From an uncultured Candidatus Saccharibacteria bacterium (GTDB taxonomy: Bacteria; Patescibacteriota; Minisyncoccia; Phycocordibacterales; Zambryskibacteraceae), in the NCBI GenBank assembly GCA_964489565.1, contig CAZAZG010000002.1, positions 1-31,983 of the forward strand: a stretch of 31,983 nt of DNA, given 5' to 3'. A program made the translations under genes and the position numbers. The notes beneath the pieces were generated by a model. That model saw only the letters and a list, made by a program, of their open reading frames with translations. It had not been told where the DNA came from and searched no databases. Shown piece by piece: positions 148 through 18,170 of this stretch. The stretch's first letter is position 1; each line of letters begins with the position of its first letter.

Positions 148-171
148 TGGCGGAGGGTAAGAGATTCGAAC
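148..171 (-). repeat. Duplicated 3' end of tRNA-Ser (att-like direct repeat, ends in CCA)
   Basis: 150-171 is identical to 306-327 (22 nt). In tRNA sense the copy reads GTTCGAATCTCTTACCCTCCGCCA. Confidence 0.9.
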
Positions 172-305
172 CTTACAGGTTCTGTCCCCTGTTTGGATTT
201 TTCTGTCGCTTTTTTAAAGCTCAGAAAAATACTCAAACAGGCTTCGAATCTCACACGCAGATGTCAAACACCTGCTCCACCCGAAAAACCCGAAATGGGT
301 TTTTT
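150..305 (-). mobile_element. tRNA-associated ~156-bp hairpin element, copy A (putative miniature integrative element)
   Basis: Lies between tRNA-Ser and its 3' duplicate. Inverted T-arm copy at 243-252; stems 188-195/234-241 and 197-205/222-230; CTGTAAG motif at 172-178 on minus strand. Confidence 0.6.
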
Positions 306-16995: not shown

Positions 16996-17133
16996 TACAG
17001 AAGAACAATTGCCCCTACGCTAAGTATCGCGTTGGGGGTGTTTTTTATACTTGAATTAAATGTGTTTTTTCAGTATGGTGTCAGGGCTAGTTTTAAGTTG
17101 TTATCGGTAGGTTATTAGGAGTTACCAACACAT

Positions 17134-17204
17134 TGCGGGATCGTCTAATGGTAGGACATTTGCCTCTGAAGCAGAGTATCTTGGTTCGAGCCCAAGTCCC
17201 GCAG
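17134..17204 (+). tRNA. tRNA-Gln(CTG)
   Basis: Acceptor TGCGGGA/TCCCGCA, anticodon loop CTCTGAA, T-arm CTTGG-TTCGAGC-CCAAG; CCA not encoded. Confidence 0.95.
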
Positions 17205-17351
17205 CAAAAAAATCGCGAAGCTATTTTTCGCAGGAAGAGGTGCTGGGAGCACTTCGCCTTGGGCTCGAAAAGCTTTTGAGGCTAAAATTGATTTTATAAA
17301 TTTTAGCCAAAAGGTATACTGATTCTGTAAGAACCGAGACCCCAAGTCCCG
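17205..17351 (+). mobile_element. tRNA-associated ~150-bp hairpin element, copy C
   Basis: 17258-17269 is the exact reverse complement of tRNA 17185-17196; stem 17280-17289/17299-17308; CTGTAAG at 17325-17331; 17341-17351 repeats tRNA 17191-17201. Confidence 0.6.
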
Positions 17352-17433
17352 AATCAATTGACTTTCTAAATATTTAATATAGTTTTCATTGCAGAATGCA
17401 ATTTAGCTAAAAACTTCTAACGGAGAAACTTGC

Positions 17434-17892
17434 ATGTCGAAAAATAAGGCAGTGCCCTCCGTCTTTCTCATTTTTCTAGAGAGAGACGGCACGATTACGT
17501 TGCTTCGTCGAAACAACACAGGGCATATGGATGGGAAGCTTGGCTTACCATCAGGAAAAATTGAGGAAGGTGAGTTGCCAGAAGAAGCGGCAGTCCGAGA
17601 AGGACTAGAAGAGGTTGGCGTGGTGATTCAACAAAACAACCTTGAACTTGTTCATTTGCAGTATCACTCACAAACGCCCAATCTTGGCGGCGACTATGTC
17701 AACTTCTACTTTTTGGTTCGACATTGGGTAGGTAAGTTGATAAATAACGAGCCAGGTATGTGTAGTGAGTTGATTAAAGTTAACCTCAATTTCAATAATC
17801 TTCCTTTAGACATGATTCCATACGTCGCAAAGGCATTACCTCATTGCAAGTCGGACACGATTGTTTACAGCACCCACATCACCCGATTGTAA
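17434..17892 (+). CDS. NUDIX hydrolase
   Basis: Nudix box GKIEEGELPEEAAVREGLEEVG; NNEPGMCSEL. Confidence 0.92.
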   Translation: MSKNKAVPSVFLIFLERDGTITLLRRNNTGHMDGKLGLPSGKIEEGELPEEAAVREGLEEVGVVIQQNNLELVHLQYHSQTPNLGGDYVNFYFLVRHWVGKLINNEPGMCSELIKVNLNFNNLPLDMIPYVAKALPHCKSDTIVYSTHITRL

Positions 17893-17935
17893 TCGGGTGG
17901 TGTTTTTTTAAAAAAACGTTTCAACTCTATACCAC

Positions 17936-18100
17936 ACAGCCAGCGAAAAATACCGTAGGTAGTTTTTCTGTGGAAAAAAGCAAATGATTTTGCTTATAGA
18001 TTGAACTCAAAGCCCGGTTGAGCATTTTCTGAGCTTTGAAAAGGTGTAAGGAAAATCCAAACAGGCTACTGGTTCTGTAAGAACCGAGATCCCAAGCCTG
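17936..18100 (+). mobile_element. tRNA-associated hairpin element, degenerate copy B
   Basis: Shares TTTTCTGAGCTTT (18025-18037) and AAAATCCAAACAGG (18052-18065) with copy A (minus strand), and TTCTGTAAGAACCGAGA (18073-18089) with copy C. Confidence 0.55.
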
Positions 18101-18170
18101 GAAAGTCCGAAAGAGCAGGTTTAACTGGTCCAGAATTTATAGTCAGATAATTATATTTTATCCACTGAAA

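Follow-up and report, generated by a model that had tools for sequence, protein, structure and literature searches.

The unit behind tRNA-Gln

What kind of element places both an inverted and a direct copy of a tRNA 3′ end directly behind the tRNA gene, and does the same layout recur at other tRNA genes? The question is raised by a window of 31,983 nucleotides from an uncultured Candidatus Saccharibacteria bacterium (contig CAZAZG010000002.1). The genome of the window, a 681-kb assembly (0.68 Mb), is referred to as G000, and was compared with two genomes of the same genus, G001 and G002. ARAGORN predicts two tRNA genes in the window, tRNA-Ser(GGA) at 306–391 on the minus strand and tRNA-Gln(CTG) at 17134–17205, and an Rfam scan of the whole window at the gathering threshold confirms both and yields no other match. 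We read the segment from 17206 to 17353 as a non-autonomous, modular and structured insertion cassette of ~150 bp that lodges in tRNA 3′ ends, a reading with about an even chance of being right. The parts of this unit, and the related features of the window, are as follows.

17134–17205, plus strand: tRNA-Gln(CTG), the host gene (ARAGORN; Rfam RF00005, 57.9 bits)
17185–17204: segment S, the last 20 nt of tRNA-Gln, copied by the element
17206–17232, no strand assigned: hp1, an A-run and, after it, a small hairpin with GCGAAGC
~17229–17236: A′, a degenerate complement of the acceptor 3′ strand, overlapping the 3′ side of hp1
17237–17255, plus strand: hp2, an 8-bp hairpin with a GGG loop; a short linker and T′ follow
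17258–17269, plus strand: T′, CTTGGGCTCGAA, reverse complement of the host T-loop and 3′ T-stem (12/12)
17271–17315, plus strand: P3, a long hairpin whose base holds a conserved TTGAG bulge region
17316–17335, plus strand: conserved TACTG junction and P4 hairpin, near-invariant columns in alignment A1
17321–17335: P4 itself, with CTGTAAG in its loop at 17325–17331
17336–17353, plus strand: DR, the distal copy of the tRNA tail, exact at 17341–17351
17434–17892, plus strand: NUDIX hydrolase gene (Pfam NUDIX, 4e-16), between the Gln unit and element B
17965–18106, plus strand: element B, a further unit of mosaic make-up without a tRNA next to it (covariance-model match, 88.6 bits)
150–305, minus strand: copy A, a 156-bp insertion behind tRNA-Ser(GGA) (306–391), with T′ at 243–252 (10-nt inverted match), CTGTAAG at 172–178 and a 22-nt DR at 150–171

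Segment S comprises the T-loop, the 3′ T-stem, the 3′ acceptor strand and the discriminator, of which the T-loop and 3′ T-stem read directly as TTCGAGCCCAAG (17185–17196). The preliminary description of this locus had taken the arm at 17258–17269 for an exact reverse complement of the tRNA-Gln T-arm and the segment at 17341–17351 for a copy of its 3′ end. Both observations hold: the arm matches the T-loop and 3′ T-stem at every one of its 12 positions, and the segment, CCCAAGTCCCG, repeats 17191–17201 at a 150-nt offset. The order of parts is identical in copy A, as had also been described, with T′, CTGTAAG and DR located in both units, and the constant position of CTGTAAG is explained by its lying in the loop of the conserved, covarying P4 hairpin.

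The individual parts have different relationships within the family. The A′ segment matches its host at five of eight positions, and an orthologous copy is present in G001. The hp2 hairpin is one of at least three exchangeable types, and the P3 subtype is common to the Glu, Arg(CCT) and Gly copies, as seen in alignment A1 and its consensus fold. The T-loop part of DR is altered (CGAG-A-C), as is typical of the class I copies described below; the orthologous copy in G001 has the same altered DR, so the alteration is inherited. The hp1 region includes a terminator-like site on the minus strand (17232–17214) and forms a hairpin in both RNA and DNA folds.

Two small motifs are also of note. The GCGAAGC heptamer (17213–17219), an unusually stable DNA mini-hairpin, is found in 10 of 78 units, 2–9 nt past the end of the tRNA, and its recurrence may hint at single-stranded DNA biology. 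A promoter-like TTGACT ... TATAGT pair (17358–17383) is located between DR and the NUDIX gene; it is absent from the consensus promoter scan because its spacer is short.

Size and distribution of the family

The same layout is found behind about 10 of the 31 tRNAs in the 681-kb assembly, and the family as a whole lies behind about a third of the tRNA genes across one CPR order. Searches were made with an nhmmer profile and then with a covariance model, R1, built from 13 copies. A covariance model had been suggested as a check in the preliminary description, and R1 finds 15–19 copies in G000 and at least one in 42 of the 61 sampled genomes of the same order, with at most 19 per genome. Copies are present in 26 of 36 genomes of the same family and also in many other families of the order; among 150 genomes from the rest of the phylum R1 finds none. 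When copies were collected with their flanks, 89 of 115 had a same-strand tRNA within 340 nt upstream, and in 73 of these the tRNA lay within 57 nt of the model start. The tRNA hosts of the 89 copies cover 33 anticodon types.

No named element with such a layout had been recognized in the preliminary description, and none has emerged here. A cmscan of 17100–18150 at E-values up to 10, together with the whole-window scan, gives no Rfam match to the units, and no small self-cleaving ribozyme family (hammerhead and others) is listed for 17100–18150 at E-values up to 10; a known RNA family or ribozyme is rejected on these grounds. Carriage by phages is likewise rejected, viral contigs scanned with two core patterns giving no true match to either, and no description of elements of this kind was found in the literature searched. 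Judged against Rfam and that literature, this is an undescribed element family; it resembles several known kinds but has the defining features of none.

One of these is RtT (rttR, RF00391), from the E. coli tyrT-tyrV locus. RtT consists of repeated non-coding units directly behind a tRNA gene that end in a copy of the tRNA 3′ end and can be tandem; it is tied to tRNA-Tyr, and its function is poorly understood. The likeness lies in repeated units of ~150–180 nt behind a tRNA and in the tail copy, whereas the family described here serves 33 tRNA types and has an inverted complement of the tail, and 17100–18150 gives no RF00391 match at E-values up to 10.

Whichever reading of the units holds, the covariance model provides an annotation handle for the entire order. 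These ultra-small genomes (0.5–0.9 Mb) devote up to ~3 kb to a repeat that shadows their tRNA genes and that fragments assemblies at tRNA loci.

Matching of the element segments to the host tRNA

The match between unit and host was compared for 78 tRNA-adjacent copies, with each segment set against the tail of its own host and against the tails of other hosts. T′ matches at 11 or more of 12 positions in 63% of comparisons with the own host and in 7% with mismatched hosts; the corresponding values are 27% and 0% for DR (at least 19 of 20) and 36% and 5% for A′ (at least 7 of 8). With this preference and with hosts of 33 anticodon types, the earlier proposal of a family of tRNA-anchored elements, conserved in structure and with segments that covary with the host, is borne out.

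The same is seen when the trailers of G000 are compared irrespective of the model, a comparison that had been proposed with the original observation. Eight of 28 tRNAs have an inverted match of at least 10 nt in their own trailer, against 2.6% with the trailers of other tRNAs and 0.1% with shuffled trailers. Direct repeats of at least 10 nt are also found for 8 of 28 (2.2% cross-paired, 0.3% shuffled), and the host-tail direct repeats are 10–22 nt long and lie at +125 to +160. A chance origin of the matches is ruled out by the cross-paired and shuffled controls.

The G.U pairs of the tRNA stems distinguish the two possible sources of the inverted segments. At G.U positions of the T-stem, T′ follows the complement of the 3′ strand at 12 of 14 informative positions and the 5′ strand at two, and A′ follows the 3′-strand complement at all four informative acceptor positions (rows with a one-base-offset tRNA start discounted). 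A′ and T′ are therefore true antisense copies of the tail, and a duplicated tRNA 5′ half is ruled out as their source. Among the mismatches to the host, G.U and A.C stand at 20:9 in T′ and 2:7 in A′, an asymmetry that is not decisive.

The copies fall into two classes that differ in how DR and T′ relate to the T-arm. In class I, which includes the Gln unit, DR begins inside the T-loop after a short linker, and T′ is host-specific, matching all three distal stem positions in 25 of 31 copies, compared with 3% in controls. Copy A at tRNA-Ser belongs to class II, where DR is 18–22 nt long and near-perfect, covers the whole T-loop and there overlaps the 3′ strand of P4; T′ matches the host in the T-loop plus 1–2 nt only. 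The distal stem positions in class II are matched at 1.44 of 3, against 1.01 in controls, and with so weak a match the inverted arm cannot carry tRNA specificity there. The suggestion that the inverted arm sets or records specificity thus fails for class II. A lag of T′ behind a retargeted unit was also considered and set aside: T′ of the Ser(GGA) unit fits tRNA-Ser(TGA) at 12 of 12 positions, but this is weak evidence, since the start of that T′ overlaps the conserved CGTG linker.

A stronger version of the specificity proposal is a retargetable insertion system, which we consider rather unlikely. A′ and T′ would base-pair with the exposed sense strand of a tRNA 3′ end and so choose the target, each insertion would write or select the matched segments, and the work would be done by a housekeeping Xer, by a RAYT-like HUH protein or by an enzyme of external origin. 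If this is true, a single 150-nt core colonizes at least 33 tRNA genes without a dedicated host recombinase, and if the matched complement directs insertion it represents a naturally reprogrammable, nucleic-acid-guided targeting principle.

Insertion, loss and exchange of modules

Evidence for insertion comes from tRNA-Ser(GGA), the host of copy A. In G002 this gene is an empty site, adjoining directly the flank that in G000 follows the 22-nt distal repeat. The filled site is 156 bp longer than the empty one, the insert lying inside a duplicated 22-nt stretch of the tRNA tail, and the distal tail copy retains the encoded CCA. As the unit lies inside the duplicated tail, from the T-loop to the discriminator, the tRNA is left whole, and its original flank now follows the distal copy. 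A unit is either there in full or missing altogether, and near relatives that lack a unit show no visible replacement. Loss would be expected to be easy and scarless, through recombination between the two tail copies. G002 has no R1 match, and its 41 tRNAs are in compact clusters.

The inner parts are exchangeable. Comparison of the tRNA-Gln loci of G000 and G001 shows hp1, hp2, T′ and the altered DR to be shared and P3–P4 to be swapped, and the several types each of hp2 and P3 are freely combined. At tRNA-Met in G002 another inner module is found between a matched T′ and DR, which indicates that the clamp is generic and the inner module exchangeable. At the tRNA-Gln locus, Logan contigs of mat metagenomes are low-depth, and are either fragments or represent tRNA-Gln of other organisms; no excision junction or circle was seen among these contigs, which are uninformative on the point.

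Copies within G000 are only 85–90% alike, over parts only, and no recent donor copy was found; this partial likeness gives no sign of a recent burst.

The duplicated tail also invites the view that the units are unrelated attL/attR scars, left by separate integrase-driven insertions of prophages or islands at tRNA genes. Such an origin would fit the tail duplication, the classic use of tRNA 3′ ends as integration sites and the variability between relatives of the region 3′ of tRNA-Gln. It is contradicted by a single conserved, covarying core that keeps a fixed distance from tRNAs of 33 types in over 40 genomes; moreover, the units are 130–160 bp long without coding remnants, the genomes hold only a housekeeping-type tyrosine recombinase, and classical att sites have no internal inverted target copy. 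We regard it as highly improbable. tRNA-targeting islands and their derivatives without an integrase (CIMEs and att-flanked MITE-like remnants) do resemble the element in that they insert from the T-loop to the 3′ end, duplicate the tail and leave the gene intact, but the element differs from them in using one small core for dozens of tRNAs, in its internal inverted target copy and in having no cognate integrase.

Folding and covariation

The insertion cassette, our preferred reading, would act as a folded single-stranded nucleic acid. Folded alone as RNA, the Gln unit pairs T′ with DR, which closes a three-way junction; when the tRNA tail is added and the whole is folded as DNA, the partner of T′ is the T-loop and stem of the tRNA itself (z = -5.7, reached by none of 200 shuffles). 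Either pairing, with DR or with the tRNA's own tail, would reproduce the target duplex. By analogy, the principle of a folded site is that of attC sites and the attP of CTX phage, and the IS200/IS605 guide likewise stands beside a hairpin.

Pairing was evaluated over 112 aligned copies and three modelled helices, in an alignment that is fitted to the model. Paired cells make up 94.9% and there are 512 double changes, values reached by none of 500 shuffles and nowhere near approached by slid controls. The constant modules are hp2, P3 and P4, together with the conserved TACTG junction and TGTAA loop. The hp2 helix is 88% paired over the 112 copies, with compensatory changes identified by RNAalifold and a G.U:A.C ratio of 46:14; the P3 base helix is 97.7% paired with both-side changes in all six pairs, and P4 is 98% paired with compensatory changes in all five. 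P3 and P4 are almost purely Watson-Crick, and the overall excess of G.U over A.C on the tRNA-sense strand (69:28) comes mostly from hp2, in a covariance-model alignment that is biased towards G.U.

In the closing helix, T′:DR pairing is stronger than in cross-paired controls (-10.9 vs -7.5 kcal/mol), and where DR has diverged from the tRNA, T′ compensates at 0 of 31 positions. Selection for a T′:DR helix was rejected, as compensatory changes are absent at the 31 diverged positions; simple decay of DR would have the same outcome.

The conserved unpaired nucleotides and covarying stems fit a functional RNA equally well, and a structured RNA derived from the tRNA trailer, like RtT of E. coli tyrT or the leuZ 3′ETS sponge, is a serious rival that is itself compatible with mobility; we hold it as a tentative possibility. 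The ends of such an RNA would mimic the acceptor/T minihelix of the host, its release would proceed by RNase P, 3′ trimming and CCA addition, and the tail duplication would be a by-product of the multiplication of units by unequal crossing-over between tail copies. Consistent with this, three helices covary strongly around a constant TACTG junction and TGTAA loop, G.U exceeds A.C on the tRNA-sense strand, the RNA fold closes T′ on DR, and the succession of A′, hairpin, T′, module and S has the topology of an acceptor stem and an extended T stem. Several features are harder to reconcile with it. The terminator-like hp1 usually separates the unit from its tRNA, only 15 of 78 copies retain an intact acceptor-like closure, T′ never compensates a mutated DR, and near relatives lack whole units with no visible replacement; the near-pure Watson-Crick pairing of P3 and P4 and the G.U bias of the alignment also count against it. 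If the units are RNAs, they constitute a large uncatalogued family of tRNA-linked structured RNAs.

Search for a mobilizing enzyme

Co-occurrence with a particular recombinase family had been proposed as a further check, and here the expectation was disappointed: no family among those searched co-occurs with the element. G000 encodes one tyrosine recombinase, an Xer-like protein on contig C16, and only a weak reverse-transcriptase fragment. Nearly all of the 61 genomes have exactly one Xer-like tyrosine recombinase (PF00589), whatever their element count, and this gene is housekeeping-like and lies away from the arrays. IS110 transposases (PF01548) are absent from G000 and from five element-rich genomes, while control genomes give matches, and no serine recombinase was found in the five element-rich genomes. 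Across the 61 genomes reverse transcriptase occurs in 21 and TnpB in two, and RAYT-like Y1 (HUH) genes in 38. Neither reverse transcriptase, TnpB, Y1 nor extra integrases are co-distributed with the element among the 61 genomes. Each of the known helper enzymes considered (tyrosine integrase, IS110, serine recombinase, reverse transcriptase, TnpB and Y1) was thus searched for, and rejected. For the insertion cassette we infer that the inserting enzyme acts in trans, and is possibly encoded outside these genomes.

The Y1 genes deserve closer attention, as the element might be a guide-directed single-stranded DNA element of the IS200/IS605-REP kind moved by a trans-acting HUH Y1 enzyme such as a RAYT-like protein. 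The guides would be A′, on the 5′ side of the hp2 foot, and T′, on that of the P3 foot; pairing with the tRNA tail in single-stranded DNA, they would direct cleavage and insertion immediately 3′ of it, and DR would be the right-end cleavage site, with no target duplication. The arrangement is suggestive, with target complements directly 5′ of hairpin feet and the target on the left flank; the empty site is compatible with insertion exactly after the tail, the GCGAAGC mini-hairpin recurs behind the tRNA in 10 of 78 copies, and Y1_Tnp/RAYT-like genes are present in G000 (C41 and C15) and in 38 of the 61 genomes. However, Y1 genes and element counts show no significant association across the 61 genomes (Spearman 0.18, Fisher p = 0.39), and four genomes with 5–10 copies have no Y1 match. 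Both RAYT-like genes of G000 (C15:1401–2063 on L143, and C41:4954–5616 on L142) are flanked by their own, unrelated REP hairpins. Known guides of the IS200/IS605 family (IS608) are 4–5 nt long, against a complementarity of 10–20 nt here, the class II T′ has no host specificity, and a chimeric unit on contig C8 combines T′ of one tRNA with DR of another. This explanation appears improbable.

We note that the hairpin at the C15 RAYT gene, CTTGGCGG TTTAA CCGCCAAG, has copies on at least nine contigs, which amounts to a classical REP-RAYT system in a genome of only 0.68 Mb.

Other mobile systems share parts of the design. IS200/IS605 and REP/RAYT elements are similarly non-autonomous hairpin elements with a target complement just 5′ of a hairpin foot, and differ from the element in the 10–20 nt of its complementarity, which for class II copies is generic, in its duplication of the tRNA tail and in the lack of co-occurrence with Y1 genes. 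The bridge (seek) RNA of IS110/IS1111 is reminiscent of the element in that a folded non-coding part matches both target strands, but no DEDD recombinase is present in G000 or in five element-rich genomes. The attC sites of integrons and the attP of CTX phage have a conserved structure with variable sequence, and are used in the form of one folded strand, with a stem that mimics a duplex, as the fold of the element would. In two cases in G000 units bracket small or promoter-less accessory genes, as attC sites do in arrays, and units are gained and lost as wholes; unlike integrons, the genomes with the element lack an IntI-type integrase and attI and have only the one Xer-like recombinase. The attC stem is formed by R and L boxes (RYYYAAC...GTTRRRY) with extrahelical bases, whereas the element has TACTG, the TGTAA loop, a tRNA-derived closing stem and a tRNA anchor.

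Accessory genes and related units

G000 and G001 differ in the region that follows tRNA-Gln. Element B, the second unit there, resembles the Gln unit in P4 and DR (93% identity over 30 nt). The NUDIX hydrolase gene that lies between the two units was found in neither G001 nor G002, and is a probable cargo. A second gene between units is present on contig C19 of G000 (C19:9278–10270; L016:1711–2703), where a 330-aa Fic/DOC-domain gene with the motif HPFADGNGRTSR is flanked by two nearly identical Glu-matched units, and was probably acquired as cargo at tRNA-Glu(CTC). These are the two gene-between-units arrays in G000; most units have no gene, and tandem units are present at locus L017. If the units are mobile, they permit harmless insertion of DNA at essential genes without an obvious recombinase, and would provide landing pads for accessory genes such as NUDIX and Fic, by which genes may flow into and out of CPR genomes.

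One unit of G000 is chimeric (C8:740–974), with A′ and T′ of tRNA-Leu(GAG) and DR of tRNA-His; it is either a recombinant of neighbouring units or an assembly mis-join. Contig C24 ends within the His unit (C24:10315–10445), at a shared nested module. An identical 53-nt sequence at C41:5731–5784 and at the ends of contigs C7, C8, C36, C50, C51, C57 and C61 is a high-copy repeat that breaks the assembly.

Two further inner modules were observed. The second module, GCCGGAGCG ... GAGGCGGGGT ... GTGACC, follows other tRNAs and occupies the P3–P4 slot at tRNA-Met of G002; it is found in G000 on contigs C7, C12, C39, C52 and C24 (trailers of Asp, Ile, Val-GAC, Cys and Arg-TCT), and also at locus L047 of G001. 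The third, GAGAAGCGAA..GGAGCTTCGC..GAC, occurs as a nested part of the long units behind tRNA-Trp, tRNA-His and tRNA-Ile. At L047 (~1590–1800; contig C84 of G001) the first 15–18 nt of tRNA-Ser(GGA), GGAGGGTTCGCATAG, are duplicated upstream of the tRNA, and the duplication flanks a type-2 module and a P4-like hairpin, which suggests that units may lodge also at tRNA 5′ ends. In G002 the tRNAs of L108–L137 are tightly clustered, with spacers of 1–20 nt, and a tRNA with a CTA anticodon (labelled Pyl by ARAGORN) is a possible UAG-reading tRNA.
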